Shown in pieces: positions 14,692 to 45,097 of a stretch of DNA of 64,000 nt. The notes under the pieces were generated by a model, which was not told where the DNA came from, made no database searches, and worked only from the letters and a program-made list of their open reading frames with translations. Position 1 is the stretch's first letter; each line of letters opens with the position of its first letter. Source of the stretch: an uncultured bacterium (GTDB taxonomy: Bacteria; Krumholzibacteriota; Krumholzibacteriia; LZORAL124-64-63). The position numbers were made by a program, and so were the translations under genes. The stretch covers positions 1,184,001-1,248,000 of the forward strand of contig CAVSGO010000007.1 of the NCBI GenBank assembly GCA_963727525.1. Direction: 5' to 3'.

Positions 14692-16803
14692 ATGCCGCAC
14701 CGACCGCCCGACACCTCTGGTTCGCCACCCGCCGCCGCCACCGCCGTGCGCGCCCTGACGTGGTTCGGCGTGCTCAGCATCCTGATTCTCGGGGCTGCGC
14801 TGGCCCACCACTCGCTGTCGGATCGAGACATATTCCTGCACGATCGCGCGGGGCGCGACATCCTGGCGGGCGAGGGCGTGCCGGCGACCAACGCCTATTC
14901 GTTCACGGCGCCGGATCAGCGCTGGGTGGACCACGAGTGGCTGTTCCAGACGCTCGTCGCCGCCGTGGCGGGGGGCGCCGACCTCGTCGCGCGGGCGCCG
15001 GCCTGGAACGCGTTGCGCATCGCGCTCGCCGTCGCCCTCGTCACCGTGCTCGTGCTGGGCGATGCCTGGCGCCGGCGGCGTGCGCCAGCGGGCTGGCTGT
15101 TGCTGCCGGCGGCCGTCTCCCTGGGCATGCTGTGGACACGCCTCACGCTGCGTCCCGAGCTGCTGAGCTACCTCTTCCTCGTCCTGGTGTGGCACGCGGT
15201 GGAAGGCGCCACGGGCGCACCCGGCACCGCGCGCTGGCGCGACATGTTCGATCCGCGGCGCCCGGCCGGTCGTGCCGTGCTGCTCACACTGGTGTGGGCG
15301 CAGTGCCACGGCTTCTACGCGCTGGCGGCCCTCGTCTGGCTCCTCGTCGGACTCACGGCGCCACGCGCGGCAGCGGGCCGGATCTCGCCGCGCCGTCTCG
15401 CCCTCGCCGGTGGCGCCCTCGCGCTCCTGGCCGGACTCGCCACGCCGTCGCTCGTGCAGGGCCTGCTCTACCCGCTGCGGGCCCTGACCCAGTTCACGCG
15501 CCCCGGTCCGCAACTGACATCGCTCGTCAGCGAACTCGTGCCCCTGCTGCGCTCGCCGGACAGCCTCGCCTGGACGATCCGCGTCACGCTTTTCAGCTAC
15601 GTCTGGGGTGCAATATGGGTGGTGGCCACGTGGGGCCGCGTGCCGCGCGGACGCGTGCTCTTCTGGCTGGTCGCCGCCGTCGCGGCGTGGCAGACGCAGC
15701 GCAACCTCGCGCTGTACGCAGTGGCCTTCATGCTGCTGCACACGGGACTCGACGGCCCTCCGGCGTGGTTCGCGCGACGGGTTCGTGCAACCTGGCGACC
15801 GGCCGCGGCGGCGGCGGCCGCGCTGCTCGCACTCGCCGTCGTCGGGCTCTGGTTGCCGGCCCTGACGAGCAACCGGTTCTACCTCGCGGAAGGCGTCGCG
15901 CGGCGCTGGGGCGGCGGCGTGACGCCGACCAATTACCCCTTCGCGCAGGCGGCACGGCTGGGCGGCGAGCTGCGCCTCGCCAACACCATCGACGCCGCAT
16001 CCACGCTCATCGACGCCACGGCCGGCCGCGTGTGCATCGACGGCCGCACCGAGGCCTATCCCGCGTCCGCGTGGCGCGACTACGCCACCCTCAAGGATGG
16101 CGGCGCCGATGCCCTCGCGCAGCTGCGAACGTGGCGCGCCGATCGCGTGGTCATCGCACATCGCAGCACCGCGGCCGACCGCCTGCTCCGCACGTTGTTG
16201 CAAGCGCCAGACTGGCACCTCGTCGATGCCGACGACGCCGGCGTTCTCTTCGCCCCCGGCGCCGACGACACGAACGCGACAGCCGCGAACCGCGCGCTCC
16301 TGCGCGCGCGTAGCGACGCCTTCGCCGCCACGTTGCCCACCTCGGCGTCCGTGCGCGCCGCCGATCGCTGCGCAGCGTGGGCCGGTCTGCTCGACGCGGC
16401 GGATCTCGGCACCGAGGCAGCCGCTCTGCTACGGCGCGGCCAGGCGCTCGCACCCGACCACCCCGCCATCCTGCACAATCTCGGCAACCATCTGATGGCC
16501 GCGGGCGACCTCGGCGGGGCCCGCACCCTCTTCCTGCGCGCCGCGCGCATCAACCCGCGCGCGGCGGGCGCGCTGGTGAATGCCGGAGTGTGCGCATTCC
16601 GACTCGGCGACCAGCGCGGTGCGGCCACTACCCTGCGCAAGGCCACCCGCGTGGATCCGCGGCGCTTCGAGGCCTGGGCGAACCTGGCCGAGGTGCGGCG
16701 CGCGGTCGGCGACATCGGCGGCGCGGCCACCGCCTACAGGAAGGCCCTGGCGCTGCGCGATGATCCGCGTCTGCGCGCCAGGGCCCGGTCGCTTGGCCAG
16801 TGA
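14692..16803 (+). CDS. Multi-pass membrane protein (GT-C-like) with C-terminal TPRs
   Basis: DIFLHDRAG...YSFTAP..RWVDHEWLFQ, RPEL, LVWAQCHG, IDGRTEAY, about 4 TPRs. Confidence 0.7.
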   Translation: MPHRPPDTSGSPPAAATAVRALTWFGVLSILILGAALAHHSLSDRDIFLHDRAGRDILAGEGVPATNAYSFTAPDQRWVDHEWLFQTLVAAVAGGADLVARAPAWNALRIALAVALVTVLVLGDAWRRRRAPAGWLLLPAAVSLGMLWTRLTLRPELLSYLFLVLVWHAVEGATGAPGTARWRDMFDPRRPAGRAVLLTLVWAQCHGFYALAALVWLLVGLTAPRAAAGRISPRRLALAGGALALLAGLATPSLVQGLLYPLRALTQFTRPGPQLTSLVSELVPLLRSPDSLAWTIRVTLFSYVWGAIWVVATWGRVPRGRVLFWLVAAVAAWQTQRNLALYAVAFMLLHTGLDGPPAWFARRVRATWRPAAAAAAALLALAVVGLWLPALTSNRFYLAEGVARRWGGGVTPTNYPFAQAARLGGELRLANTIDAASTLIDATAGRVCIDGRTEAYPASAWRDYATLKDGGADALAQLRTWRADRVVIAHRSTAADRLLRTLLQAPDWHLVDADDAGVLFAPGADDTNATAANRALLRARSDAFAATLPTSASVRAADRCAAWAGLLDAADLGTEAAALLRRGQALAPDHPAILHNLGNHLMAAGDLGGARTLFLRAARINPRAAGALVNAGVCAFRLGDQRGAATTLRKATRVDPRRFEAWANLAEVRRAVGDIGGAATAYRKALALRDDPRLRARARSLGQ

Positions 16804-16810
16804 TGCCCGG

Positions 16811-18229
16811 CTAGGAGGACACCTGCACCGTGTAGGTGACCGTCTTCTCGCCATCCTTCGGCACGTCGACGACGAACTCGAGCGCCTGCGCGCTGAGCTT
16901 CTGGAACGGCTGCGAACTCTCCAGCACCTCCCAATCGCCGCCCACCATCTCCTGCACGTGCACCGACACGGCCTCATCCTTGTGGTTGCGCAGGGTGATC
17001 GCGAACGTCGAACGGCTCACGGTGTCGGCGACCTTGCGAAAGTCCTTCTGCACACGCGTGGCCACCACGTCGAAGGCCTTGCCCACCTCGAGGTTCACAC
17101 GCTCGTCCTTCGGCGTGTGGTCGATGCGGTCCTCGCCCAGAAGTTGACGGCTGCCGCTCTGCGCCTCGCCATAGACCCGCACGACGCCCGCCGGCATGGG
17201 CAGACCGAGGTGGTTGTCCTGGCGGTTCTCGAAGGCGTAGGTCACCGTCACGTCCTGCGGCATCTCGCCCCAGCCGCCGCGCCTGAAGAACTGCCCCTGC
17301 GCCCGCGTCGTGTATTGCTTGGTCACCGTCACGCCGTCCGCGTCGAAGAGCGACACCTGCTTGGTCTGGTTGTCCTTGAGCGTCGTGGGCCAGTTCACCG
17401 TGTAGAGGTGGTAGTCGTAGAGCGCCTCCTCGGTGACGGCGCGGGCCTCGTCAGCCATCGCGTACACCTGCCCCTTCATCGCGATGGGCGGCCGGGCGGC
17501 CTGATGGATGTCGCCGGCGACGAGCATGAGCTTGGCGTCGTCGTAGGTGGCGCCGCTGCGATTGTCGACCGACACCCACGCCTGCAGACTCGCCTGGTCG
17601 CCCTTCGGCGTGAGCTGCAGAATGTAGTCCGCGGCCCAGCTCAGGCCACCGGTGAGATAGGATGCATCGATCTCGGCATCGCCGGCGCGCTTGGCCTCCG
17701 CACGCCACACGAGGGTGGGGCGGGCGCGTAGATCCGCGGGCAGCGATGGCAGCACGATGCGGCCGGGCATGTCGAAGACGATCTCACCATTCACCGCGTA
17801 CACCGGCCCGTTGGCCATGCCCAGCAGCTTGCCCGTGATGCGACCGCCGGTCTCCTGCTGCCAGGCGACGTCATGGCCCACGTACTTCTCCATGATCTTC
17901 TCGCGCGACATCAGATCGAACTCGTAGTTCTGCTCGAGCACGGACAAGCCCGTCTTGCCGCCGATCGCGAGCACCAGCGTCTTGGGTTGGATCTGCGACG
18001 GCACGCCCTGGAACTCGAGAGCGACAGCGCCGGCGGGCACCGCGACCCGACGCACCTCGCGCACAAGCCCGAGGTTCTGGTTGTAGACTGTCAGCTCGAG
18101 CTGGGTGCGCTGCGTGGGTTCGGACACCACGGTGGCCGGTGCGTCACCAGCCGCGCCGGCGGGCGCATCGGCCGCCAGCATCGCCCCGGACAGCGCCGCA
18201 AGCGTGAGGATTCGCAAGCGGTTGGACAT
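16811..18229 (-). CDS. DUF4139-domain secreted protein
   Basis: Signal peptide, LTVYNQNLGLVRE, LEQNYEFDL, YLTGGLSWAADY, DYHLY, GEDRIDHTP. Confidence 0.85.
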   Translation of the reverse strand: MSNRLRILTLAALSGAMLAADAPAGAAGDAPATVVSEPTQRTQLELTVYNQNLGLVREVRRVAVPAGAVALEFQGVPSQIQPKTLVLAIGGKTGLSVLEQNYEFDLMSREKIMEKYVGHDVAWQQETGGRITGKLLGMANGPVYAVNGEIVFDMPGRIVLPSLPADLRARPTLVWRAEAKRAGDAEIDASYLTGGLSWAADYILQLTPKGDQASLQAWVSVDNRSGATYDDAKLMLVAGDIHQAARPPIAMKGQVYAMADEARAVTEEALYDYHLYTVNWPTTLKDNQTKQVSLFDADGVTVTKQYTTRAQGQFFRRGGWGEMPQDVTVTYAFENRQDNHLGLPMPAGVVRVYGEAQSGSRQLLGEDRIDHTPKDERVNLEVGKAFDVVATRVQKDFRKVADTVSRSTFAITLRNHKDEAVSVHVQEMVGGDWEVLESSQPFQKLSAQALEFVVDVPKDGEKTVTYTVQVSS

Positions 18230-18264: not shown

Positions 18265-18291
18265 TAAAGAGGCGCCCCGGCGGGACGATCC
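18265..18291 (+). promoter_or_regulatory. sigma28-type promoter of cheY-like gene
   Basis: TAAA-N15-GACGATCC. Confidence 0.5.
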
Positions 18292-18341
18292 CTCCCATAA
18301 CACATCAGCGGGCCGGAAAGTGCCACGACGCGGAGGCATAC

Positions 18342-18725
18342 ATGCTGGGAACCGTCATCATCGCGGACGATGCACCTTTCATGCGGGCCATGTTGCGCGG
18401 GATCGTGACCGACCTCGGGCTGGAGGTCGCCGGCGAAGCCTCCGACGGCGCCGAGGCCGTGGCGCTCTACCGGCAACACGCCCCCACCCTCGCCCTGATC
18501 GATCTCACGATGCCCGGCGTCGATGGTGTCGAGGCCGTGCGACAGATCGTGGCTCATGACCCCGCCGCCGCACTCGTCATGGTGTCGGCGCTCGGACAGA
18601 AGGACGCCGTGCTCGCGGCGGTCAAGGCCGGCGCGCTCGACTTCATCATCAAGCCGTTCGAAGCCGACCGGGTCGAGGCCACCTTGCAGAAGATCCTCGG
18701 TCGCTTGCCCGTGACCGTGGCCTAG
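18342..18725 (+). CDS. cheY: Single-domain response regulator, CheY-like
   Basis: IIADDAPFMR, IDLTMP, MVSALGQ, FIIKPF; RBS GGAGG. Confidence 0.85.
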   Translation: MLGTVIIADDAPFMRAMLRGIVTDLGLEVAGEASDGAEAVALYRQHAPTLALIDLTMPGVDGVEAVRQIVAHDPAAALVMVSALGQKDAVLAAVKAGALDFIIKPFEADRVEATLQKILGRLPVTVA

Positions 18726-19510
18726 CTCAGCAACACGAGCGCGACCACGCCCAGGGGCAGACAGTACAGCGCGAACTTCCAGAAGTGGCGCTGCACCACT
18801 GCCAGCGCCGTCCAGCGGATCGCGAGCAACCCCACGACGAACGCCGTGAAGGCGGCGAGTGCGAGCCCCGTCGCGCCCACGCGCGAGGTAAGGTTGCCGT
18901 CCATGAGTTGCAGCACCAGCGCCCCGGCAATCGCCGGCACGGCGAGCAGGAAGCTGAAGCGCGCCGCCTCCGCCCGGGCCAGACCCAGCCACAGCGACGC
19001 CGCGATCGTGGATCCCGAGCGGCTCACGCCGGGACAGATGGCCACGGCCTGCGCACAACCCACGAGCAGCGCCCTGCCCAGGGTGGGCGGCCGCGGCTCC
19101 CAGATCCCCGCCAGCTCCGTGGCCTGATCCCGCGCGGCACGCGTGGACAGCAGCACCAGGCCGGTGAAGATGAGCCCTCCGGCCGCGAACACCGGTGCGC
19201 CGAACAGCCCTTCGACCGTGTCCTTGAGTGCGAGCCCCACGATCACCGCCGGAACCGTGCCCACTGCCAGAGCCATGAGGTACTGGATGGCTGGACGGTC
19301 GAAGCGCAGCAAGCGCAGGATTTCGCGCCGGTACACCACGAGCACCGAGACCAGCGTGCCGCAGTGCAGCACCACGTCGAGAAAGAAATCGTCCGCCGAT
19401 GCGCCGAACAAATGCTGCAAGAGCACGAGGTGTCCGGAACTGCTGACGGGAAGAAACTCGGTCAGACCCTGCACGATGGCGAGGATCAGCGACTCCAGCA
19501 ACGGGGACAT
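18722..19510 (-). CDS. uppP: Undecaprenyl-diphosphate phosphatase
   Basis: IVQGLTEFLPVSSSGH, PGVSRSGSTI, ARFSFLL. Confidence 0.96.
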   Translation of the reverse strand: MSPLLESLILAIVQGLTEFLPVSSSGHLVLLQHLFGASADDFFLDVVLHCGTLVSVLVVYRREILRLLRFDRPAIQYLMALAVGTVPAVIVGLALKDTVEGLFGAPVFAAGGLIFTGLVLLSTRAARDQATELAGIWEPRPPTLGRALLVGCAQAVAICPGVSRSGSTIAASLWLGLARAEAARFSFLLAVPAIAGALVLQLMDGNLTSRVGATGLALAAFTAFVVGLLAIRWTALAVVQRHFWKFALYCLPLGVVALVLLS

Positions 19511-19527
19511 GGTTTCTCCTGGGACGC

Positions 19528-20373
19528 TCAGGCGTTCTCGCGCGCGAGGCGCGCGAGCCGGTAGTGGTGGCGCGCCTCAGGCGTGCTGCCGAGGGCGTCG
19601 TATGTGAGGGCGAGTTGATACTGCAGGCGGCTATCCTCGGGGAACGCCGCCTCGGCGGCCTGCAGCGCGGTGAGCGCTTCGGGAAAGCGCGTGAGCTTGT
19701 GCAGGCAGGTGCCGCGATAGAACTGGGCTCGCGTGAGCTGGGGCGCCTGCCGCAGCACACGATCGAAGCGTTCGAGGGCGTCGCCATAGCAGCCCTGACG
19801 TAGCAGACACATGCCCGCGTAATAGCTTCCGCGCGCGTCGGAAGGATCGGCGGCCACGGCCTTCTCGAAACAGTTGAGCGCCCGATCGAGCATGCCGGCC
19901 CGCAGATGCACCATCCCGAGCCCGTGGTAGGCATCACGATCCGGCTTGCTCGCGATCGCGGCCTCGAACGCGCGCACCGCCTCGTCGGTGCGCCCTTCCT
20001 CCGCGTACAGCGCGCCGAGGTTGTAATACGTCTCCGCCGATGCATCCTCGTGGAAGATCGCCTTGCGGTAGGCGCGCACCGCGTCGTCGCTGCGTCCGCG
20101 ACGGTCGAGGGTGACGCCAAGATTGGTCAACAACGCGCCGCTGGTGGGATTGACCGCGAGCCCGTCGCGGAACCAGCGCTCCGCGTCTTCGAGGTCGCCC
20201 GCCTTCAGGCACACGCAGCCGAGGCGGTAGTACCAGTCCCAGTGTCCGCTCTCCTGGACGACCGCGCGCCGGTAGGCGCGGACAGCCTCGGCCCAGTCGC
20301 GCTTCAGCTCGGCATCGCGACCGGCCTGGTACCACGCGGCGGCATCGGGTTGGGCTTCGGGTTGGGCGCACAT
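19528..20373 (-). CDS. TPR repeat protein (about 8 repeats), probably leaderless
   Basis: Tandem TPRs (YYRLG, LTNLG, YYNLG, YHGLG, YYAG, FYRG, YQLA); ATG 20373 lies 7 nt after a -10 box. Confidence 0.85.
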   Translation of the reverse strand: MCAQPEAQPDAAAWYQAGRDAELKRDWAEAVRAYRRAVVQESGHWDWYYRLGCVCLKAGDLEDAERWFRDGLAVNPTSGALLTNLGVTLDRRGRSDDAVRAYRKAIFHEDASAETYYNLGALYAEEGRTDEAVRAFEAAIASKPDRDAYHGLGMVHLRAGMLDRALNCFEKAVAADPSDARGSYYAGMCLLRQGCYGDALERFDRVLRQAPQLTRAQFYRGTCLHKLTRFPEALTALQAAEAAFPEDSRLQYQLALTYDALGSTPEARHHYRLARLARENA

Positions 20374-20380
20374 GGGCGGT

Positions 20381-20409
20381 ATGGTAGTCGAGGCGGGTCG
20401 GTCGGTCAA
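20381..20409 (-). promoter_or_regulatory. sigma70 promoter for TPR-uppP (leaderless)
   Basis: TTGACC-N17-TACCAT-N7-ATG. Confidence 0.7.
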
Positions 20410-21188
20410 CGATCCTCGATGTGCACCTCGAGCAGGATCCGCGTCTCGCCGCTCGTTCCCAGGGCGCTACGCGGAATGCGGACCGGGACCACCAGCGCCA
20501 CCGGCGCATCGGACCGCGGGCCATCCTCGTGGTAGCCGGGCGTGTGCGGGGTTCCCGGCACGGGTGGCGAGGAGTCGAATCCGGCCGGGCTGCCGTCGGG
20601 GCCGGGAACCGGGCTCTGGGCGGCGAGCTGCTGCTGCAGGATCTGCCCGATGGTGAGGCTCAGGATGGCCTTGAGCGCCTCACGCACCCCCTCGCCGTTG
20701 GTCACGTCCGCCGGGAACGACAGCAAGCCCCACGGATTGAGCAGGCTCTCGAGGCGGTCCACCGGCAGCACCGCGGCGGCATCGCGGTTGTTGTACTGCA
20801 GCACCACCGGCACCGACATGAGATCGCGGTTCCAGGTATCGAGGAAGCCCTTCAGCGCCTCCATGGCACTGAGCGCCTGGTCGAGCTCGTCGGGGCCCGA
20901 ACTGCAAGCGAAGACGATCCCATCGAAGGGCGGACGCTGTGTCGGCGCCAGCGCCAGGTTCTCGCGCCCCACGTCCACGGCCTGGACGAAGACCTGCCAG
21001 TCGCCCTGCTGGCCATTGCGCAGCATGAAGGCGATCTGGCGACTCGAGTCCTCCGTGGCGACGGCCAGCCGGTGCTCCGGGGGGAGCGATTGCTGGATTC
21101 GCGCCAGGGTCTGTCGCTTTCCGACGCCTGCCGGACCATAGTACAGGATCCGGCAAGATCGTGTGGCCGTATGCTGGGCAGTGAGCAC
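20406..21188 (-). CDS. Degenerate MglA-like small GTPase with C-terminal extension
   Basis: RILYYGPAGVGK, FDGIVF, VPVVLQYNNRD, LNP...FPA....GEGV..ALKAI resemble MglA; GTG 21188 after GGAGG. Confidence 0.75.
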   Translation of the reverse strand: MLTAQHTATRSCRILYYGPAGVGKRQTLARIQQSLPPEHRLAVATEDSSRQIAFMLRNGQQGDWQVFVQAVDVGRENLALAPTQRPPFDGIVFACSSGPDELDQALSAMEALKGFLDTWNRDLMSVPVVLQYNNRDAAAVLPVDRLESLLNPWGLLSFPADVTNGEGVREALKAILSLTIGQILQQQLAAQSPVPGPDGSPAGFDSSPPVPGTPHTPGYHEDGPRSDAPVALVVPVRIPRSALGTSGETRILLEVHIEDR

Positions 21189-21233
21189 CTTGCGCCTCCG
21201 TCGCGAACCATCGCTTGTGAGCAACACCTGGCA

Positions 21234-21248
21234 GCAACATCCGTGCCA
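21234..21248 (-). promoter_or_regulatory. sigma54 -24/-12 promoter
   Basis: TGGCACGGATGTTGC, exact match to TGGCACG-N4-TTGC. Confidence 0.8.
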
Positions 21249-21263
21249 TTCGAATGGTCATTG

Positions 21264-21288
21264 AAGCGACTCCTGGGCAACGGGTTAC
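21264..21288. promoter_or_regulatory. IHF-like site upstream of the sigma54 promoter
   Basis: AAGCGACTCCTGGGCAACGGGTTAC, same spacing as the 14513 and 45184 motifs. Confidence 0.4.
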
Positions 21289-21500
21289 GTCGTCCGCCGA
21301 TACGGACCCGGCAAAATGCACCCTGGAGGCGCCCCGGCAGCGGGGACTTCGCCATGGCATTGCGGAAGGCCCCGCGGCGAGTTCCTGAAGTTTCTGCTCA
21401 GTCCCGATGGGTGAGGCAAGGATCTTGCTGTCCCACCGCGAGATCAGGCGGTACGCGCCGCCACCGCACCACGGGACGGACCCCCATACGGGAGCGAACG

Positions 21501-21941
21501 ATGGCCAGCAATACCCCGCAGATCCTCAAAACGATGTTCTCCCGGCTGCTGAACGTGGAGGTCGAACCGGCGCTCGCCGCCAAGCTGAGCGCGGTCATCG
21601 ACAGCGTGACCGAGCGGGTGGGCAACAACTTCGACCTCGAGACGGTCCAGGGCCAGAACACGTTCCGGGCACTGCTGTGCTCGATGGTCGTTCACGGCTG
21701 GGGCAACGGGATGCATCCCTTCCACAACCCTGAGAACGACCTCGAAGGCCAGCCCATCGAGGTGCGGGTGAGTAAGGACATCCTGATGCAGATGGCTGAT
21801 CTGCAGTCGCTGCGGTACGTGAAGAAGGATGCGGAAGGGCGGGTCAGGAAGGCCCTCTTCGAACCCGATCAGAACACCCGGATCCGCCAGCAGATCGACG
21901 ACATCCTCGGCGAGATCAGTGCGACCAAGTGGTCCGAATAG
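21501..21941 (+). CDS. Hypothetical protein (146 aa)
   Basis: RBS GGGAG, ATG 21501, normal globular composition and high third-position GC; family not recognised. Confidence 0.8.
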   Translation: MASNTPQILKTMFSRLLNVEVEPALAAKLSAVIDSVTERVGNNFDLETVQGQNTFRALLCSMVVHGWGNGMHPFHNPENDLEGQPIEVRVSKDILMQMADLQSLRYVKKDAEGRVRKALFEPDQNTRIRQQIDDILGEISATKWSE

Positions 21942-21951
21942 GTCGCCCATG

Positions 21952-21990
21952 GACGACGCGCGACCAGGGGGCCCCCGATCGCGCGTCGTC
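21952..21990. terminator. Hairpin between convergent genes
   Basis: GACGACGCGCGA...TCGCGCGTCGTC. Confidence 0.65.
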
Positions 21991-21998
21991 TTGAAGAT

Positions 21999-22553
21999 CT
22001 AGAAGAGTTTCTGGCCCTCGGCGAGGATCTCGTTCAGCGCGTCCTTGAAGTACGTCGTGCCGCTGGCGGCCTCGGCCCCCACTTTCTCCTTGTACAGCTC
22101 CCACGATTTCTTGATCTCCGGCCCCAGGACCTCGAGCAGATTGCCGTCGGCCAGGGCGCGATCGCGCGCCTCGCGGTTGTACACGACGATATCCGAGACG
22201 AGCGCCCGGGCGAGCATCTCGGTCTTGTCGCGACGCCGTCGGGCCGTCGACCGCGTAGGCGCTTCCGCCACGGCCACGGCCGGTTCGGTACGCGCTGCGG
22301 CGGGACGCGGCGCCGGTGTCGCCGGCGCGGTGGGCGCCTCGACGGGCGACGTGAAGTTCTCGAAGCTCTCGAGGCTCTCGAGCCCCGTCACGGCGGCTGC
22401 CGGACGCGGCGAGGGCGCAGCGGTCTCCGGCGCCGTACCATCGAGGGTGAAGACGGTCTTGCAGTTCGGACAGCGTACGCGCACCTTGCGCCGGGGCACC
22501 TTGTCGTCGTTCAGGCGGTACCGCACGCGGCAACCGGTGCAGGTGGTGATCAT
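21999..22553 (-). CDS. Zinc-ribbon (MJ0042-type) protein with Pro/Ala linker and RomX-like C-terminal domain
   Basis: CTGC...CPNC; C-terminus LARALVSDIVVYN...EIKKSWELYKEKV...YFKDALNEIL; RBS GAGGAGAGG. Confidence 0.75.
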   Translation of the reverse strand: MITTCTGCRVRYRLNDDKVPRRKVRVRCPNCKTVFTLDGTAPETAAPSPRPAAAVTGLESLESFENFTSPVEAPTAPATPAPRPAAARTEPAVAVAEAPTRSTARRRRDKTEMLARALVSDIVVYNREARDRALADGNLLEVLGPEIKKSWELYKEKVGAEAASGTTYFKDALNEILAEGQKLF

Positions 22554-22602
22554 GGCCAGAATCCTCTCCTCTCAGGTTCAGCGCTCCAGGAACACGTGAG
22601 GA

Positions 22603-22629
22603 TCTTCGGCCGCTACCTGTCGATCTTTA
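22603..22629 (-). promoter_or_regulatory. sigma28-type promoter
   Basis: TAAA-N15-GCCGAAGA. Confidence 0.7.
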
Positions 22630-33025: not shown

Positions 33026-34129
33026 CTACGCCGCCGGCGCTCCCGATGCCAGCCGCAAAACGTCGGCGGCAATATCGGCGGCCGCGCGCGGCCGCGCCAG
33101 GCTGGCGGCGGCCGTCGCCATCGCGGCCAGGCGGGCGCGATCGCCGACGATGGCCTCGACCATGGGCGCCAGCGTGTCCGCGCGGCAATCGCGGTCCTCC
33201 AGCACGACGGCGGCGCCGGCCGCCTCGCGGGCGCGGGCATTGCGGAGCTGGTGATCGTCGGTCGCGTGCGGGAAGGGCACCAGTACCGCCGGACGGCCGG
33301 TCACGGCCAGCTCGGCCAGCGTCATCGCGCCAGCCCGACACACCACGAGGTCGGCCCAGCGCAGCCCGGGCGCCATGGCATCGATGTAGGGCATCACGCG
33401 TACCCGCGCCGGCGACCAGGCGGCGAATGCCGCCGCCACCTCCGCATGGGCGGTGGGGCCCGTCTGCACGACGAGCGCGAGGTCGCCTCGTTGCCGCCAC
33501 CGCGGCGCGATCGCCGCCAGGGTTTCATTGAGCGTGCGGGCGCCGCCGCTGCCGCCGACGACGAGCACGCGCACATCGCCCTGCGGCAGATCAGGCGCCG
33601 TCGCCGTACCCGCGCTGAAGGCCGCGCGCACGGGATTGCCGGTCAGCACGCAACGTGCGGCCGGCAGCCAGCGCCGCGCCGCCTCCTCCCCCAGATAGAT
33701 GCGCTGCGCCCATCGCGCGGCGAGTCGGTTGGCCGATCCGGGCACCGCATTCTGCTCCTGGATCGCGCAGGCGATGCCGCGCGCACGCGCCGCCGCCATC
33801 ACCGGGCCGGTGACGTAGCCGCCGGTGCCGAGCACCACCTGCGGACGCCAGCGGCCGAGCAGCACCCACGCCGCGAGCGCCCCGCGGCCGAAGTTTCCCA
33901 GGAACCGCGTGCGAGCCACCGCACCGAGGCCGCGAAAGCCCGAAGCCGGCACCGCATGGAATGGCAGACCGGCGTCGGTGGCGAGGCGGCGCTCGATACC
34001 CCCCGGCGTGCCCGCGAAACGGATCTCGATGGTCGGCGCCTGTGCGCGCAGCGCCTCTGCGATGGCCAGCGCGGGGTAGACGTGCCCCCCCGTACCACCA
34101 CCGGTGAGCAGCACGCGCGGCGCGGTCAC
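33026..34129 (-). CDS. murG: MurG glycosyltransferase
   Basis: GGGTGGHVYP, GTGGY, EQN..PG.AN, GNPVR, GGSGGA, CRAGAMTLAE. Confidence 0.97.
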   Translation of the reverse strand: MTAPRVLLTGGGTGGHVYPALAIAEALRAQAPTIEIRFAGTPGGIERRLATDAGLPFHAVPASGFRGLGAVARTRFLGNFGRGALAAWVLLGRWRPQVVLGTGGYVTGPVMAAARARGIACAIQEQNAVPGSANRLAARWAQRIYLGEEAARRWLPAARCVLTGNPVRAAFSAGTATAPDLPQGDVRVLVVGGSGGARTLNETLAAIAPRWRQRGDLALVVQTGPTAHAEVAAAFAAWSPARVRVMPYIDAMAPGLRWADLVVCRAGAMTLAELAVTGRPAVLVPFPHATDDHQLRNARAREAAGAAVVLEDRDCRADTLAPMVEAIVGDRARLAAMATAAASLARPRAAADIAADVLRLASGAPAA

Positions 34130-35298
34130 GACCGGCCCGGCAACCAGTTCTGGCGCCACTGCTGGTAGCTGCGTCCCTGGCGCTCGATGCTCAGGATGAT
34201 GCCCACGGCCGCGAGGTTGGACACCAGCGCCGACCCGCCGTAGCTGACGAACGGCAGCGGCACGCCCATCACCGGGATCATGCCCGTCACCATGCCGATG
34301 TTCGTGAAGCCGTAGACGGCAATCATGGCACTCAGGCCCGCGGCGACGAGGCGTCCGAAGGTGTCCTGCGCGCGCTGCGCGATGCCCAGGCCGCGCCACG
34401 CGAAGATCAGCAGCGCCACCACCACGATGACGGTGCCGATGAGACCCAGTTCCTCGCCGAGGTAGCTGAATGCGAAGTCGGTGTGCTGCTCCGGCAAGAA
34501 GGAGAACTTGTTGTGGCTGTTGCCCGGACCCAGCCCGTGCCAGCCGCCGGCGCCCAGGCCGATGAGCGACTGGTGCACCTGGTAGCCGAAAGGCGGCTCG
34601 TCGCCGCGGCCCTCGCCGAGCCAGCCGAGGCGCCAGGCGTCGATGCGCGTGTGCAGCTTGGACACGGCGAGGTAGCCTGCAGTGGTGCACAGCACCGCCG
34701 CCGGCGGCACCAGCGCGAGGAGACGCCAGGAGAGACCCGCCAGCAAGACCACGAGCAGAGTGCTGATCGCCACCACCACCACGTTGCCGAAATTGGGCTG
34801 CAGGATGAGGATCACCATGAGTACGCCCGGTCCCGCCGCGAGGGTGCGCAGCAGGTTGCGCCAGGCCAGGGGCTCGGTGACGGCTGGCGCGCCGAGCCGC
34901 GCGGCGAGGAAAATCACCACGGCGATCTTCGCCACCTCGAGCGGCTGCACGGGGAAGAGTCCGAAGAAGGAAAACCAGCGCTCGATGCCCGCCTGCTTGC
35001 CGATCACCGGGATAGCCGTGAGCAAAAGCCCCACCGCCAGCACGCTCCAGTACACGAAAGGCCGCCGCAGGAACCCGAGGTCGAGGCTCGCGAGCACCAC
35101 CAGCGCCACCAGACCCAGCGCCAGGCGCACGAGCTGCTTGACGAGGTAGTAATATTGCCCGAGCGAACCCGCCTGAGCCTCGGGCCGGAAGCTCCCGGCG
35201 CCGTATACGGCGAGGGTGCCGAGGATGCAGAGCGCAAGCACGGCGAAGAGCAGCATGCGATCGCCGTCGCGGAAGATGCGCAGCAAGCGTCCGCCCAC
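34126..35298 (-). CDS. ftsW: SEDS protein FtsW
   Basis: QPLEVAK, QPNFG, GYQ..QSLI, LPEQHTDF, LPFVSYGGS. Confidence 0.94.
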   Translation of the reverse strand: MGGRLLRIFRDGDRMLLFAVLALCILGTLAVYGAGSFRPEAQAGSLGQYYYLVKQLVRLALGLVALVVLASLDLGFLRRPFVYWSVLAVGLLLTAIPVIGKQAGIERWFSFFGLFPVQPLEVAKIAVVIFLAARLGAPAVTEPLAWRNLLRTLAAGPGVLMVILILQPNFGNVVVVAISTLLVVLLAGLSWRLLALVPPAAVLCTTAGYLAVSKLHTRIDAWRLGWLGEGRGDEPPFGYQVHQSLIGLGAGGWHGLGPGNSHNKFSFLPEQHTDFAFSYLGEELGLIGTVIVVVALLIFAWRGLGIAQRAQDTFGRLVAAGLSAMIAVYGFTNIGMVTGMIPVMGVPLPFVSYGGSALVSNLAAVGIILSIERQGRSYQQWRQNWLPGRS

Positions 35299-35299
35299 G

Positions 35300-36652
35300 T
35301 CAGTCTCCCTTCGCGCCGAGGGCGCGCGCCGCCGCGGCGAAGGCCTCGCCGCGGTGGCGGTAGTCGCGAAACATGTCGAAGCTCGCGCACGCCGGGCTCA
35401 GCAGCACCGTCGCCTCCGGCGCGGCGAGCAGGGCAGCCAGGCGCACCGCCTCCTCCATGCTCGTGGTCGGATGCGTGGGCACCAGATCGCCGACGGCGGC
35501 CGCAATGGCGGGCCCCTCCTCGCCGATCGTGACGACGGCCCGCACCTGGGCCATGGCGTCGCGCAGGGGCGTATAGTCCTCGCCCTTGCCCCGCCCGCCG
35601 GCGATGAGGACCACGTCGCCAGGGTAGTCGCGCAGGCCGGCGCACACCGCATGCACGTTGGTGGCCTTGGTATCGTCCACGAAGCGCACGCCGCCGAGCC
35701 GACCGACCGGCTGGTGGCGATGCGCCAGACCACGGAACGACCGCAGCCCCTCGGCGATGACGTCGGGCGCCAGGCCCAGCGGCAGGACCGCCGCCGCGCT
35801 GGCCAGCGCGTTGAGTACGTTGGGTGGCGACGGCAACGCGAGTTCGGACACGGCGAGCAGGCGTACGTCTTCGAGGAAGAGGTCGTCGCCGCGGCGATGC
35901 ACGGTCGCACCGGCGTCGCGTGCGCCGAAGAGCACGCGCCGTCCTCGGTGCGACCAGGCCAGCGCCTCCGGGCAAGCCGTCCAGGTGACGAAGGCGCCGT
36001 CATCGGCCACGTGCTCGACGAGCCGCCGCTTCGCCGCGAAGTAGGCGGCGAGATCGGCGTAGCGGTCGAGGTGGTCGGGAGCTAGGTTCAGCACCACGGC
36101 GACGGTCGGGCGGTAGGTGGCGATGGTCTCGAGCTGGAAGCTGCTGCACTCGATCACGGGGATCGCCTCGGGCGGGAGCGTATCGGCGACCATGGCGAGG
36201 GGCTTGCCGAGGTTGCCGAGCCCCTCGGACACGAAGCCGGCCGTACACAGCAGGTGGGCGATCCAGGCCGTCGTCGTGGACTTGCCGTTGGTGCCGGTGA
36301 CGGCCACGCTGCGGCCGCCGAAGACGCGGGCCGACCACTCCAGCTCGCCGTGCACGGGCACGCCCCGGGCGACCAGCTGCTGCAGACGCGGATGCGCGAG
36401 GGAGACGCCCGGGCTGAGCACGACCGCGTCGATACTCGCGCGCAGCGCACCGTCCCAGTCGCCGCCCGTGTGCAGCGCGTCGAAGGCGTCGCCCGCGAGG
36501 TCGTCGGCCTGCCAGCGCGCGTCGACCCTGTCCTGCGGGGCGTCGTCCACACCCACGATGCGCGCACCGTGCCGGCGCAGCATGGCCGCCGCGGCGCAAC
36601 CGCTGCGGGCCAGGCCCACCACCAGGATCGTCTTGCCGCGCACGTCGATCAC
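35300..36652 (-). CDS. murD: UDP-MurNAc-L-Ala--D-Glu ligase
   Basis: GLARSG, TGTNGKSTT, ECSSFQL, DDTKATN, LLSPACASFD. Confidence 0.97.
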   Translation of the reverse strand: MIDVRGKTILVVGLARSGCAAAAMLRRHGARIVGVDDAPQDRVDARWQADDLAGDAFDALHTGGDWDGALRASIDAVVLSPGVSLAHPRLQQLVARGVPVHGELEWSARVFGGRSVAVTGTNGKSTTTAWIAHLLCTAGFVSEGLGNLGKPLAMVADTLPPEAIPVIECSSFQLETIATYRPTVAVVLNLAPDHLDRYADLAAYFAAKRRLVEHVADDGAFVTWTACPEALAWSHRGRRVLFGARDAGATVHRRGDDLFLEDVRLLAVSELALPSPPNVLNALASAAAVLPLGLAPDVIAEGLRSFRGLAHRHQPVGRLGGVRFVDDTKATNVHAVCAGLRDYPGDVVLIAGGRGKGEDYTPLRDAMAQVRAVVTIGEEGPAIAAAVGDLVPTHPTTSMEEAVRLAALLAAPEATVLLSPACASFDMFRDYRHRGEAFAAAARALGAKGD

Positions 36653-36661
36653 GCCACGCTC

Positions 36662-37747
36662 CTACTGCAACTTGATGGTGCTCATGCTCAACAGCGCGAG
36701 CAGGATGCCCACGATCCAGAAACGTACCACCACCTGCGTCTCCGACCAGCCGCTCAGCTCGAAGTGATGGTGCAGCGGTGCCATGCGGAAGAGACGCCGG
36801 CCCTTCGTCCAGCGGAAGAAGCTCACCTGGCAGATCACAGAGACCGCCTCGATCACGAACATACCGCCCACGATGACGAGCAGCAGCTCCTTCTTCACGA
36901 GAATGGCCACCGTGCCGAGCGCGCCGCCCAGCGCGAGGCTGCCGGTGTCGCCCATGAACACGCGCGCGGGATGCGCGTTGAACCAGAGGAATCCCAGGGA
37001 TGCGCCCACGACCGAGGCGCAGTACACCGTAAGCTCGCCGGCGCCGGGCAGGTAGAGGATGTTGAGATAGTCGGCGAAAACCTTGTTGCCCGACAGGTAC
37101 GACACGGCAGCGAAGGCCGCGAACGACAGCGCGCTCAGCCCGATGGCCAGGCCGTCGAGTCCGTCGGACAGGTTCACCGCGTTGCTCGTGCCGCTGACCA
37201 CGAGCACGATGAGGGGGATATAGAACCAGCCCCAGTTGATGAGCAGATCCTTGAAGAACGGCACCGACGTCTTCGTGAGCACGGCGCTGCCGTCGCTCGT
37301 GATCAGGATGATGCCGAGCACCAGGCCGAAGCCCACCTGACCCGCCATCTTCACGCGGCCGACCATGCCCTTGGGCCGCTTCTTCACCACTTTCAGGTAG
37401 TCGTCGACAAAGCCCAGCGCCCCCATCCACACCGTGGCCAGCAACGCGAGCCGCACGTAGGTGCTATCGAGCCGCGCCCACAGCGCCGTGGGCACGACGA
37501 TGGCGGTGAGGATCAGCAGCCCGCCCATCGTGGGCGTTCCCGCCTTGGCCTTGTGGTGGGCCGGCCCGTCCTCGCGGATGGTCTCGCCGAGTTGCATCGT
37601 GGCGAGCTTGCGGATGAGCCAGTCACCGAAGATGAAGGCGATGAGCAACGCCGTGATGGTGGCATAGGCGGCGCGGAAGGTGATGTACTGGAAGACGTTG
37701 AACACCGACCACTGGGTGTGTAGCGGATAGAGCAGGTGATAGAACAT
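36662..37747 (-). CDS. mraY: Phospho-MurNAc-pentapeptide transferase
   Basis: [40 protein letters not shown]. Confidence 0.98.
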
Positions 37748-37753
37748 CGGCCG

Positions 37754-39175
37754 TCACTCCGGGGCGTCGGGGCCAGGCCAGCGCCGCGCCAGTTCGTCGA
37801 TGAGTTTCTCCATGGCCGACGAGCGCGAACCCTTGACGAGGATGCGATCGCCCGGCGATGTCGCGGCGGCCAGTACGTCGGCCGCCCGGGCATGCGTCGC
37901 GCAATACTCGGCGATCCCGCCGCCCTCGTCAAACCCCGCGACGAGCGGCCGCGCCGCTTCGCCCACGGCCACCAGGCGGGCGATGCCGAGCGCCGCGAGG
38001 GCGTGTCCGGTCTCGTGGTGCAGTATCGCGCTCCGGTCGCCCAGCTCGCCCATCGCGCCCACGGCCGCCCAGGCGACGCCGCCCTGCAGGGTGAGGAGCG
38101 CCGCGGCGGCTCCGCGTAGACTCTCCGGGTTGGCATTGTAACAGTCATCGAGCAGCACGCGCCCGCCCAGGCGCCGCACATGGCCCCGGTGCGGCGACGG
38201 CGCGAAGGACGCCAGGCCGCGGGCGATCGCGGCGTCGTCGACGCCGGCGGCGCGCGCCGCGAGCACGGCGGCGGCGAGGTTGGCGGCGTTGTGCTCGCCC
38301 GGCAGCGGCACCGCCCAGGTGGTGTCGTCAAGGTGCAGCCAGCCGGCCGGTTCGCCGGCGCCCGGTTCCCAGCGCCAGCGATGATCGCCGCCGTCGCGGC
38401 CGAAGGTCACGACCGGCCCATGCGCCCGCTCCTGCCAGTCGGAAAAACCCGGACTGTCGTGGTTGAGGATGGCCACGCCGTCCGGCGGCAGCACGTCGAG
38501 CATCTCCCCCTTGCCGCGGATCACTCCGGCGAGGGAGCCGAAACCGGCCAGGTGCGCCGCCGCGGCGTTGGTGATGATGCCGATCGCCGGCTGCGCCAGG
38601 GCGCCGAGCGCAGCGATCTCGCCCACGGCGGACGCGCCCATCTCGACCACGGCGTAGCGGTGGGTGGCATTCAGGCCAAGGAGCGTGAGGGGCACCCCGA
38701 GATCGTTGTTCAGGTTGCGGGCCGTCGCGTGCACGGGCCCCGCCGCCGACAGGCAGGCAACGAGCAGATCCTTGGTCGTGGTCTTGCCGTTGGTGCCGGT
38801 GACGCCGATCACGTGCACCGTCGTCTGACGCGCGCGCCAGCACGCGGCCAGGCGGGCCAGCGCGGCGCGTGGCCGCGGGCTCACGAGCACGGTGCCGTGG
38901 TCGGGCAGCGTGGTGGGGTCGACCTCGTCCGAGAGCGCGCAGGCACCCGCCGCGAGCGCGCTCGCGATGAACGCGCGCCCGTCGACGTGCTCGCCCGGCA
39001 GCGCCACGAAGAGCACGTCGGTCGTGACCTGGCGCGAGTCGAGGACCGCGCCGGCGAAGGCTCCGCACAGCGCCGCGGCGTGCACCTCGCGACCACCGGC
39101 GAGGGCCCGCGACAGGAGCCCGGCTGCGGCCAGTTCGGTCGCGGCCTCTCGCAGGCGGTAGCGTGTCTCAGGCAT
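37754..39175 (-). CDS. murF: UDP-MurNAc-tripeptide--D-Ala-D-Ala ligase
   Basis: TGTNGKTTTKD, NLNNDLGVPLT, DDCYNANPES, KGSR. Confidence 0.96.
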   Translation of the reverse strand: MPETRYRLREAATELAAAGLLSRALAGGREVHAAALCGAFAGAVLDSRQVTTDVLFVALPGEHVDGRAFIASALAAGACALSDEVDPTTLPDHGTVLVSPRPRAALARLAACWRARQTTVHVIGVTGTNGKTTTKDLLVACLSAAGPVHATARNLNNDLGVPLTLLGLNATHRYAVVEMGASAVGEIAALGALAQPAIGIITNAAAAHLAGFGSLAGVIRGKGEMLDVLPPDGVAILNHDSPGFSDWQERAHGPVVTFGRDGGDHRWRWEPGAGEPAGWLHLDDTTWAVPLPGEHNAANLAAAVLAARAAGVDDAAIARGLASFAPSPHRGHVRRLGGRVLLDDCYNANPESLRGAAAALLTLQGGVAWAAVGAMGELGDRSAILHHETGHALAALGIARLVAVGEAARPLVAGFDEGGGIAEYCATHARAADVLAAATSPGDRILVKGSRSSAMEKLIDELARRWPGPDAPE

Positions 39176-42769: not shown

Positions 42770-43218
42770 GGCCGCTCCACCCCTGCGGTGGCGGCCGCGA
42801 CAGCATCACCGCCGCCGACGTTGCGCAGTACGCGTCGCCACAGATGACCACCACCATGGTGGTTAGGCGTGACCATGACCAGGACCTGCCCCGGGTCGTC
42901 GGGATTGATCATACCCAGCTCGCGGCACGCACGGTCGACCACGACGAGGCGCGACGATGTCTCGTTCCAGCGCGCGGTGAGCACCGCATGCCGGGTGATG
43001 AGCGCGGTACGCTCGCGGGTGAGCGCGCCGATCTCGCTGCGCGCGCGCGTGACCTGGTTGCCGAGAAAGATCGCCGCGGCGAGACCGGCCACGACGAGCA
43101 TCCCGGCGATGACGCCGCACATCACGGGGCGGCCGAGGGTGGCCCGTCGCCGCGCCATCGTGCGCGGGATCTGGCGGGTGGCACCGGTGAAGAGCCCGGC
43201 GACGGTCTGGGTGGTCAC
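42766..43218 (-). CDS. ftsL: FtsL-like cell division protein
   Basis: One TM plus coiled coil, A..ELGM; located between rsmH and ftsI with 4-nt overlaps. Confidence 0.7.
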   Translation of the reverse strand: MTTQTVAGLFTGATRQIPRTMARRRATLGRPVMCGVIAGMLVVAGLAAAIFLGNQVTRARSEIGALTRERTALITRHAVLTARWNETSSRLVVVDRACRELGMINPDDPGQVLVMVTPNHHGGGHLWRRVLRNVGGGDAVAAATAGVERP

Positions 43219-44159: not shown

Positions 44160-44560
44160 GCCGACTGGACGGGCTGAGTGCCTGCCACCACCTTCCAACC
44201 TTGCGGCAACCACGTGCCGCGCTCGAGTTCGCGATCCCAGTCCTCCATGGCCAGGATCGCATCGAGATACGCGCTCCAACCGACGAGCCGCAGGCAGTGG
44301 CCGAAGGACCGGAGGCCCCGGCTCCAGCGGATCAGCGGCGAGACGCAGCGGTAGTCCATGTGCAGGAGACGCCGGCCGTCAAACACGAGCTGGCAGCTGC
44401 GCGCTGGCAACGCCAGGCTCACCTGGCGCATCAATTCCTGACAACCGTCACGATCGAGGATGCCGGCGAGGGAAACCCGGACCAGGTCGCCACGCTGATT
44501 GATGCGAAACACGAGAGCCCCTGCCTTCGCAGCGGCCGGCCGGATCTCACCTCGCGGCAT
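44156..44560 (-). CDS. STAS-like small protein (134 aa)
   Basis: VRVSLAGILD...LVFDGRRLLHMD...LRLVG.S..L..IL pattern; RBS GGAAGGAG; ATGA overlap with rsmH. Confidence 0.65.
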   Translation of the reverse strand: MPRGEIRPAAAKAGALVFRINQRGDLVRVSLAGILDRDGCQELMRQVSLALPARSCQLVFDGRRLLHMDYRCVSPLIRWSRGLRSFGHCLRLVGWSAYLDAILAMEDWDRELERGTWLPQGWKVVAGTQPVQSA

Positions 44561-44598
44561 GTGGGCTCCTTCCCATGACGTCACCCCTCCATGGGCGA

Positions 44599-45048: not shown

Positions 45049-45061
45049 CGAAACCTGTTTT

Positions 45062-45097
45062 CACCAATCTTCACCATAAGACCCCACTGCCAACCAC
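45062..45097 (-). promoter_or_regulatory. MraZ operator direct repeats
   Basis: GTGGTT / GTGGGG / ATGGTG / TTGGTG at exact 10-bp period between promoter and start. Confidence 0.75.

Follow-up and report, generated by a model that had tools for sequence, protein, structure and literature searches.

The MglA/MglB/RomR-RomX system is the best understood front-rear polarity switch in bacteria, and what is known about it comes almost entirely from Myxococcus. In this work we describe a locus with homologues of MglA and RomX, which was read from the open reading frames (ORFs) of a 64-kb stretch of DNA (contig CAVSGO010000007.1; called the window throughout, about 69% G+C) from an uncultured bacterium of the poorly studied phylum Krumholzibacteriota. 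The six genes of the cluster encode a CheY-type receiver, UppP, a tetratricopeptide repeat (TPR) protein, an MglA-like protein, an orphan protein of 146 amino acids (aa) and a fusion of a zinc ribbon (ZnR) with a RomX domain, ZnR-RomX (Table 1). An earlier note on this DNA had taken all of these except UppP for a rewired, Myxococcus-like polarity or motility switch in a poorly studied lineage, without an adjacent mglB and interrupted by uppP. The five genes were indeed found where the note had placed them, no Roadblock gene was found in the locus, and uppP does lie between cheY and the TPR gene.

PMC4316618 reports Group 1 MglA from many phyla, and also orphan MglA genes such as SofG and the Bdellovibrio MglA, which, like the MglA-like gene of the window, have no mglB beside them. 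The Myxococcus-like module outside the myxobacteria proposed in the earlier note is real in terms of homology, and going by PMC4316618 its occurrence there is not unusual in itself. RomX of M. xanthus (PDB 8ZNA) is the partner of RomR in the MglA guanine nucleotide exchange factor/recruitment complex. The RomX preprint (10.1101/2024.02.20.581209) assigns helix 1 (R11, R14, D19) to the binding of MglA-GTP and helix 3 (L75, R76, W87) to the binding of the receiver (REC) domain of RomR, and mentions fusions of REC, zinc-finger and RomX-like domains in AlphaFold DB. For the zinc ribbon of GltJ, PMC11135422 names as ligands its own linker and the C-terminal helix of MglB, and for the ZitP ribbon PopZ.

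We propose that the locus carries a family-specific form of an accessory MglA module, in which a second MglA has turned into a pseudo-GTPase adaptor; this reading as a whole has, in our opinion, about an even chance of being right. In what follows G000 is the genome holding the window, L-numbers are fetched loci and f-numbers (f3, f5, f7) are other families in the phylum. MglA1 stands for the canonical MglA encoded beside MglB and MglA2 for the second MglA, which resides at the recG-side locus.

A putative pseudo-GTPase derived from MglA

The MglA-like protein did not match any Pfam or NCBIfam family. A phmmer search of the PDB returned only four matches, all of them MglA of T. thermophilus or M. 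xanthus (E=2.3e-12 to 3.7e-11). The AlphaFold2 model, built with 17 orthologues, had a predicted local distance difference test score (pLDDT) of 84 and a predicted template modelling score (pTM) of 0.71, with pLDDT >90 in the G domain. When the model was submitted to Foldseek, the 12 best matches were again all MglA (E between 1.5e-14 and 5.4e-13, TM (target) 0.70-0.77), followed by Rab/Ras proteins at 2e-9 or weaker. The protein thus has a Ras-like G domain, to which MglA of M. xanthus and T. thermophilus (PDB 3T12, 5YMX, 6H17, 6IZW) is nearest in sequence and fold. The G domain is followed by a Pro-rich disordered linker and a conserved C-terminal motif of about 30 aa. A GGAGG box, read directly from the sequence, stands six bases ahead of GTG 21188; because of this box and of the position of the sigma-54 promoter box, a product of 260 aa is likelier than one of 273 aa.

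To judge the state of the GTPase motifs, MglA1 and MglA2 of the phylum were compared with 17 members of the window's family and with the 120 closest database homologues of the MglA-like protein. MglA1 and MglA2 both carry GPGLxGKTTN, DRT, TVPGQ and NKRD. The P-loop of the window protein reads GPAGVGKR, i.e. GxxxxGK itself is intact and the GKT of MglA1 and MglA2 is replaced by GKR, as it is in 120/120 homologues. In switch I the Arg finger-Thr motif DRT is missing: the window protein has SRQ, and the form seen most often in the 17 family members is ERQ. Switch II is AVDVGRE (AVDxGxE in the family) instead of TVPGQ, without the catalytic Gln, and just before it six residues are deleted; VPGQ is absent from 118 of the 120 homologues. 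G4 is NNRD versus NKRD, and among the homologues only 3/120 have NKRD, the others showing at least 20 variants such as NRRD, NGRD, NHRD, NQSA and NARE. The tail motif is retained by 115/120. Compared with MglA, the window protein is therefore distinguished by GKR, a variable G4 and the lack of the switch-I Arg-Thr pair and of TxxGQ, and in addition by its Pro-rich tail with the conserved end motif and by a predicted sigma-54 promoter. An extension beyond the G domain is also present in SofG.

The reading frame is intact in 17 genera, and the ratio of nonsynonymous to synonymous substitution rates (dN/dS) was 0.10-0.35 in 7 pairs, values that are rough since dS was around 1 or higher. On these results we reject the reading of the MglA-like gene as a pseudogene. 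Near-invariant segments occur elsewhere in the protein (e.g. LPVDRLESLLNPWGLLSFPA). As judged from these sequence comparisons the protein is under purifying selection.

We conclude that it is a predicted pseudo-GTPase derived from MglA; both the homology to MglA and the degeneracy of the motifs, as stated in the earlier note, were borne out. As the GTPase has lost the motifs needed for a switch, it is probably a fixed adaptor. A search of the literature for pseudoGTPases in connection with MglA found nothing on the topic.

It is conceivable, though rather improbable in our view, that the protein is still a working nucleotide switch, in which the P-loop Arg and the Asp of AVDxG take over Mg2+ coordination or catalysis. 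An intact GxxxxGK with Arg as the next residue in all 120 homologues indicates selection, not drift, and D-x-G resembles the DxxG of Ras at the place where MglA has T-x-x-G; a G4 that is free to vary, the missing switch-I Thr and switch-II Gln and the six-residue deletion before switch II are difficult to reconcile with such a function. Three deeper members of the window's family retain GKT or GKS, and one of the three also retains NKRD, which looks like an intermediate state. These members, and the confidently modelled G domain, are in favour of a working switch. While preferring the pseudo-GTPase, we leave room for an unorthodox form of nucleotide binding, which the invariant Arg and the D-x-G in the switch-II region might permit.

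A RomX domain behind a zinc ribbon

Residues 1-36 of ZnR-RomX match the MJ0042-type zinc ribbon (PF13717, 46.5 bits, cut-off 30.3; TIGR02098, 37.7 bits, cut-off 20.9) and the zinc ribbon of GltJ (7ZOK, E=3.5e-4); the CxxC-N19-CxxC pattern is that of a ribbon of the MJ0042/GltJ type. A disordered linker separates the ribbon from what appears to be a three-helix RomX domain at the C-terminus (about residues 105-184), of which residues 109-179 align without a gap to residues 7-77 of RomX 8ZNA (E=6.8e-9). The earlier note had described the protein as a zinc-ribbon protein ending in a RomX-like domain, and this description holds.

The protein shares the helix-1 pattern LARAxxSDIxxYN with M. xanthus RomX. 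It differs from it in being fused behind a ribbon and linker and in the residues of helix 3: L75/R76 of RomX correspond to A178/E179, and the protein ends five residues later, before the position of W87, hence the RomR-binding residues are not kept. R116 and D121, the equivalents of RomX R14 and D19, were invariant in 20/20 sequences, and the position of R11 is taken by M113 in the window protein. The resemblance to GltJ extends, according to PMC11135422, to the spacing of the four Cys residues (positions 5, 8, 28 and 31 here) and to the succession of zinc ribbon, flexible linker and protein-binding domain; unlike in GltJ, the C-terminal domain is RomX and not GYF, and a membrane anchor is absent. 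The fusion is retained across the phylum, with C5, C8, C28, C31, R116, D121 and the C-terminal ALNxILAxG invariant or nearly so.

A tblastn search of G000 found ZnR-RomX as the only RomX-like sequence. No RomR-like protein composed of a REC domain and a Pro-rich region was seen in a crude tblastn screen of the REC-containing ORFs of G000, which revealed only enhancer-binding, GGDEF, kinase and CheB-like architectures and is no proof that RomR is absent. Of the genes that the earlier note suggested looking for in the genome, canonical mglAB, flagellin and PilB/PilT-type ATPases were found and romR was not seen in that screen. A word-based search for relatives of ZnR-RomX yielded close ones only. 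In a scan of genome contigs, nearly all of the best 80 loci had titles that gave either Krumholzibacteriota or no taxon. A few were labelled Latescibacterota, Fibrobacteraceae, Gemmatimonadales or Deltaproteobacteria, and we regard these labels as doubtful.

Conservation of the cluster and history of the MglA paralogues

Orthologues of the MglA-like gene (E<=1e-37) are present in 17 of the 24 other genomes of the window's family. Sixteen of these 17 loci were fetched, together with 24 further loci around the 146-aa gene from eight other families. In all 16 family loci the TPR gene, the MglA-like gene and the divergent 146-aa gene have the same order and orientation, and CheY adjoins them. ZnR-RomX comes next in 15 (the 16th stops at a contig edge), and UppP lies between CheY and the TPR gene in 13. 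In the loci of the other families ZnR-RomX is beside the 146-aa gene in 24/24 cases, four of them partial matches. In 21/24 of these loci there is an MglA gene no further than about 5 kb from the orphan, and a TPR homologue (E<=1e-12) was found in 22/24; a comparable CheY (E<=1e-20) was found in 1/24, and it is a different receiver gene that follows MglA2 downstream. The module sits beside recG in Krumholzibacteriota and has a core consisting of ZnR-RomX, the orphan, an MglA paralogue and the TPR protein. The earlier note had left open whether the genes form one linked cluster; for the core, linkage reaches far beyond G000, for CheY it is confined to the window's family.

Two observations concern genes of these loci in the other families. 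Directly downstream of MglA2 in f3, f5 and f7 there is a single-domain receiver of about 119 aa (L049:13138-13497, L034:3367-3720). Its orthologue in G000, C7:1857497-1857865, is 50% identical, lies 650 kb away and is not the CheY of the window; the gene ahead of it encodes a protein of 591 aa, by guess a sensor kinase. A gene for about 270-310 aa is situated between ZnR-RomX and the 146-aa gene (L049:8485-9375, L034:10025-10843, L038:9899-10810, L050:9750-10679). The C-terminal half of its product is of the RsbW/SpoIIAB-type HATPase_c_2 (E=1.4e-17), the N-terminal half matches no family and might be receiver-like. The G000 locus has no orthologue of this gene, and the genome has only a 26-33% partial match at C7:1691527-1691910.

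G000 also encodes a canonical MglA1 of 205 aa (GPGLGGKTTN, TVPGQ, NKRD), 78 kb from the cluster. Its gene context is DnaX-YbaB-RecR-MglB-MglA-CinA-RecA, with MglB directly upstream of MglA, and this MglB is the sole Robl_LC7 match in G000; no mglB, therefore, lies within four genes of the MglA-like gene. As the canonical mglB-mglA operon is located elsewhere, the locus is better seen as an accessory paralogue module than as the main switch. Of the rewired polarity or motility switch that the earlier note had envisaged, the MglA and RomX homology and a conserved order of the core genes were supported; the CheY linkage holds within the window's family only.

When canonical mglBA loci were fetched from other genomes, MglA with part of this context recurred in 17/17; in 12 of them MglA was 67-86% identical to MglA1 of G000 and MglB was detected. 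In the families that hold MglA2 at the cluster locus, a canonical MglA1 locus was confirmed for only 8 genomes; the phylum therefore has two paralogues, MglA1 with MglB, and the locus-resident MglA2. MglA2 of the other families is 49-60% identical to G000 MglA1 and only 23-31% to the MglA-like protein; its GTPase motifs are all present, and its disordered tail is 170-400 residues long. The tail-end motif xVPVxIxRxxL...IRIxLEVxV is common to MglA2 and the MglA-like protein, and the Pro-rich tail is shorter in the latter. We consider the MglA-like gene to be a derived MglA2, since it stands at the same place between the orphan and the TPR gene and has the same tail motif and a sigma-54 box as well.

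In nine loci from seven genera of the window's family no MglA gene is present between the 146-aa gene and the TPR gene. The MglA1 of five such genera (mglBA loci L075-L079) is 31-40% identical to that of G000, and their MglB was undetectable or 29% identical. Some of these diverged MglA1 proteins have GKTA, and PGR or PGL replacing PGQ. It seems that in the genera without the MglA-like gene the whole MglA system is decaying, the flagellin genes staying. Three f5 genomes, which are 99-100% complete, gave no MglA match at all.

Grouping the loci by MglA state and taking medians of identity to G000, we obtained 75% for the RomX domain and 74.5% for the 146-aa protein in those family loci that have the MglA-like gene (n=12), 40.5% and 60.5% in family loci without it and with a degenerate MglA1 (n=6), 59.5% and 55.5% in other families with MglA2 at the locus (n=20), and 30.5% and 50.5% in loci without any MglA match (n=2). 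How well the RomX domain is conserved tracks the MglA state; the 146-aa protein simply declines with distance.

The 146-aa orphan protein

The 146-aa protein had no match in Pfam, NCBIfam or the PDB. It was found in 149 of the 151 sampled genomes of the phylum, in 146 of them as a single match, and the full-length matches were at least 49% identical. Its 653 close database homologues are all unnamed or hypothetical, and a profile search of 1.84 billion proteins gave only 34 representatives, mostly fragments. The protein is thus restricted to the phylum and nearly universal there. HGWGxGMHP and LRYxxxD..G..LFE.D are invariant.

The AlphaFold2 model (pLDDT 69, pTM 0.54) consists of three N-terminal helices, a loop, a hairpin and a C-terminal helix. 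Foldseek found nothing in the PDB at E<=0.001 (best 0.93), and there was no usable match in the ESM Atlas. In a comparison with 48,161 chains by VIA-align the best Z was 6.5, which is under the level that is meaningful for helical bundles with this tool. About a dozen of the 50 best rows were sigma-70/ECF (extracytoplasmic function) sigma region-2 domains or complexes (Z 4.6-6.4). This likeness, which concerns residues 1-89 of the model, may be taken as a weak lead.

The earlier note had counted the orphan among the components of an MglA system. The gene persists in lineages without any MglA, which argues against an obligate partnership with MglA.

Promoter-like boxes and an apparent link to flagellar genes

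Just upstream of the GGAGG-GTG start of the MglA-like gene there is a perfect TGGCAC-N5-TTGCW (21233-21248, minus strand), the only match in the 64 kb, where 0.05 is expected. TGGCAY-N5-TTGC precedes the gene in 16/17 family loci (AGGCAC in the 17th), and similar boxes stand before MglA2 in 11 of the 13 loci scanned from other families. G000 has one rpoN and 22 strong matches to sigma-54 activators. The GG-N10-GC spacing, the TGGCAC-N5-TTGC sequence and the presence of rpoN and activators identify the box as a predicted sigma-54-dependent promoter. Pointing at the 146-aa gene, a GGCA(A/G)G-N4-TTTGC box was found in 15/17 family loci, G000 included. The ancestral box, as carried by the orthologous loci (GGCAAGCAWTTTGCA), aligns to CGGCAAAATGCA in G000 (window 21307-21322), which is shorter by four bases and has lost the GG-N10-GC spacing; a correctly spaced box occurs 100 bp on, at 21414-21428.

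The pattern TAAAG-N14-GNCGA, which was set after the sites had been seen and for which the flagellin promoter of G000 (CTAAAG-N14-GCCGACAA) served as template, has exactly two matches in the window (0.07 expected; two matches in 0/100 shuffles), one before cheY and one before ZnR-RomX. The strict sigma-28 consensus TAAA-N14-16-GCCGATAA and the pattern TAAAG-N13-16-CCGATA had no match in the window, and a scan for sigma-70 promoters and terminators gave nothing above chance. By eye, 6 of the 16 other family loci could be seen to carry CTAAAG-N14-G(T/C)CGA-like boxes ahead of cheY. Before ZnR-RomX, L015, L018, L022 and L023 have the equally spaced box TAAA-N15-GCCGA(T/A), and L014 and L016 come close to it. 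Promoters of the sigma-54 and sigma-28 type had been attributed to several of the genes in the earlier note; such boxes do precede four of them, and they are conserved in the family loci.

Genome-wide the FliA-type box has 14 matches in G000. Eleven precede recognisable genes: flagellin, two methyl-accepting chemotaxis proteins (MCPs), an MCP-like sensor, three single receivers (cheY of the window being one), an Hpt protein, a hybrid kinase, a small TPR protein and ZnR-RomX; for the remaining three we found no convincing gene. As cheY and ZnR-RomX share the box with flagellin, MCPs and CheY-like genes, their expression looks tied to the chemotaxis/late flagellar regulon. The motility genes detected in G000 comprise five flagellin matches, four CheW matches and PilB/PilT-type ATPases. 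Three flagellin genes are in tandem (C7:1006948-1009440), and the third alone has a clear box of the template type (C7:1008898), the sequences upstream of the other two being different.

These results raise the question whether in the window's family the module serves the flagellum, e.g. by controlling where flagella are placed, how many there are or when the cell changes from swimming to moving on surfaces and back, and not the polarity of type IV pili or gliding as in Myxococcus. The FliA-type boxes, the chemotaxis-type cheY and the detection of flagellin in 23 of the 24 genomes of the family are what such a role would predict, and sigma-54 is commonly used in flagellar hierarchies. The single family genome without a flagellin match, G006, still has the MglA-like gene, however, the core module occurs in further genomes in which flagellin was not found, and G000 possesses PilB/PilT-type ATPases as well. 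We regard a dedicated flagellar role as rather unlikely.

Shared function or conserved neighbourhood

A number of observations weigh against an accessory MglA module with a pseudo-GTPase adaptor. Adjacency of CheY is confined to the window's family. In many loci the synteny extends to recG, rpmB and uppP, and the conserved gene order may be due in part to slow rearrangement. The loci of two MglA-free f5 genomes contain the 146-aa gene, a divergent ZnR-RomX, the TPR gene and UppP, and the third MglA-free f5 genome also keeps the 146-aa gene. Each of the two groups with a diverged RomX domain may be a single clade, in which case they would represent at most two independent events. In the G-domain tree the form of the window's family is on a branch of length 1.14 and is not joined to MglA2, its position being unresolved, so it is by location, tail motif and promoter that the MglA-like gene is judged orthologous to MglA2. 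In 9/16 genomes of other families, many of which have MglA2, no flagellin was found, and for this reason the flagellar tie is not ancestral. To these must be added the unorthodox nucleotide binding considered above.

A competing explanation is a conserved neighbourhood without shared function: this region of the chromosome would rearrange little and its genes would act separately, RomX with MglA1/MglB, the TPR protein and UppP in envelope biogenesis, the orphan in something unrelated. We think this unlikely. The synteny mentioned above includes a SurA-like gene in addition to recG, rpmB and uppP, the neighbours within the family include a DUF4139 gene and one for a putative TPR membrane protein, and the orphan is conserved irrespective of the integrity of MglA and even without any MglA. 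A slowly rearranging region does not readily account for the persistence of the orphan-MglA2 pairing in 21/24 loci between families whose RecG proteins are only about 42-48% identical, nor for the divergence of the RomX domain that follows the loss of MglA. Moreover, two sigma-54-type boxes lie in the intergenic region between the divergently transcribed orphan and MglA genes, and the MglA-like and TPR genes overlap by four bases. It is for these reasons that we prefer the accessory MglA module.

Layout of the locus and neighbouring genes

The features of the cluster are listed in Table 1. The start codon of the TPR gene and the stop codon of the MglA-like gene share the four overlapping bases, and uppP follows the TPR gene on the same strand after 17 bp and is presumed to be the last gene of the operon. 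The TPR protein matched only generic TPR families in NCBIfam, below their cut-offs.

Table 1. Genes and promoter-like boxes of the cluster (window positions)
Feature	Position	Strand	Basis
Sigma-28 (FliA)-type promoter-like box before cheY	18265..18291	+	TAAAG-N14-GACGATCC
Stand-alone CheY-type receiver, 127 aa	18342..18725	+	Pfam Response_reg E=3e-26
UppP/BacA undecaprenyl-diphosphatase	18722..19510	-	Pfam BacA E=2.3e-70
Cytoplasmic all-TPR protein, 293 aa	19528..20409	-	TPR_2 E=2.6e-44
Putative MglA-derived pseudo-GTPase, likely 260 aa	20406..21188 (ORF open to 21227)	-	MglA homology, motif loss
Predicted sigma-54 promoter box TGGCACGGATGTTGC for MglA-like/TPR/uppP operon	21234..21248	-	Perfect consensus
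Sigma-54-like box AGGCAAGGATCTTGC before the 146-aa gene	21414..21428	+	GG-N10-GC spacing, two mismatches
146-aa orphan, divergent from the MglA paralogue	21501..21941	+	ORF; phylum-wide conservation
ZnR-linker-RomX fusion, 184 aa	21999..22553	-	Zn_ribbon_4 E=3.4e-12; RomX 8ZNA E=6.8e-9
Sigma-28 (FliA)-type promoter-like box before ZnR-RomX	22603..22629	-	TAAAG-N14-GCCGAAGA

The receiver of the window scored 92.2 bits with PF00072, and its scores with the CheY equivalog models of NCBIfam were under the cut-off. The closest solved structures are CheY proteins of the Thermotoga and Bacillus type (PDB, E=1.7e-32). The acidic pair D9-D10, D54, S82 and K104 can be read from the translation; with acidic pocket, phospho-acceptor Asp, Ser and Lys all in place the protein is predicted to be a chemotaxis-type CheY.

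The flank of cheY (window 14692-18229) encodes a putative membrane protein of 703 aa, which has TPR repeats at its C-terminus, and a DUF4139 protein of 472 aa, and both genes are syntenic within the window's family only (each in 14/16 loci). Judged from the first residues of the ORFs, a putative uvrB occupies the left edge of the window (1-1561) and a putative division/cell-wall (dcw) gene cluster is located at about 34000-46600.

Possible function and implications

The module that we envisage would work as follows. The ancestral core would have consisted of ZnR-linker-RomX, the phylum-specific 146-aa protein, a tailed MglA2 driven by sigma-54 and the TPR protein. A sigma-54 activator would switch on the mglA-like/TPR/uppP operon together with the divergent orphan gene. 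The form found in the window's family retains the fold of MglA, the motif at the end of the tail and the predicted sigma-54 promoter, and it has lost the P-loop Thr, the switch-I Thr and the switch-II Gln. The resulting pseudo-GTPase would no longer cycle between GTP and GDP and would serve as a constant adaptor. Its most likely partner would be the TPR protein, whose gene overlaps the MglA-like stop codon. MglA is reportedly paired with the TPR protein SgmX, and the Bdellovibrio MglA is paired with the TPR protein Bd2492; the pairing of the MglA-like protein with the TPR protein would be a parallel of these. ZnR-RomX might bind MglA1-GTP through its conserved helix 1, and the zinc ribbon could replace RomR as a docking element or as the element that contacts MglB. 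In the window's family, FliA-type control and the adjacent CheY would couple the system to chemotaxis. What the analysis shows is the homologies, the loss of motifs, the purifying selection, the conserved gene order and the promoter boxes; the binding partners are inferred, as is a role in polarity or motility, which we deduce from homology.

A more far-reaching version can be imagined, which we regard as a long shot. In this version the phylum would have a two-GTPase polarity system whose tailed MglA2 was repeatedly disabled or lost and survives here as a permanently "on-like" or decoy GKR scaffold. Controlled by sigma-54, the scaffold would form a hub with the TPR protein and the 146-aa protein and would be wired to chemotaxis via the FliA-dependent CheY; a RomR-independent ZnR-RomX would bridge MglA1-GTP and MglB. 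If this were true, the locus would provide a bacterial example of a pseudo-enzyme that descends from a small GTPase and organises cell polarity, and MglA-type systems would gain a new component in the orphan.

For some elements of the locus there are published precedents: MglA is reported from many phyla, MglA genes without mglB are known, and RomX-like domains have been described in fusion with zinc fingers. We found no published account of a phylum-wide second MglA with a tail and sigma-54 control or of its conversion into a GKR pseudo-GTPase, nor of a REC-less ZnR-RomX as the sole RomX (the supplementary table of the RomX preprint aside), of FliA-type wiring of such a module, or of the lineage-specific orphan. 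Among the publications listed for Krumholzibacteriota there was no title on motility, and those listed for RomX and MglA were all on Myxococcus.

It must be noted that the phylum is uncultured, that the evidence is computed throughout and that MglA outside the myxobacteria is already well documented. Within these limits the locus offers three natural variants of the polarity switch: an MglA paralogue that appears to have become a pseudo-GTPase while staying under selection, a RomX domain lacking the RomR-binding residues and carried on a GltJ-type ribbon, and putative wiring by sigma-54 and FliA-type promoters in a flagellated organism. They raise the questions of which MglA surfaces work without a nucleotide cycle, whether a zinc ribbon can replace RomR, and whether MglA-type systems talk to flagellar chemotaxis.

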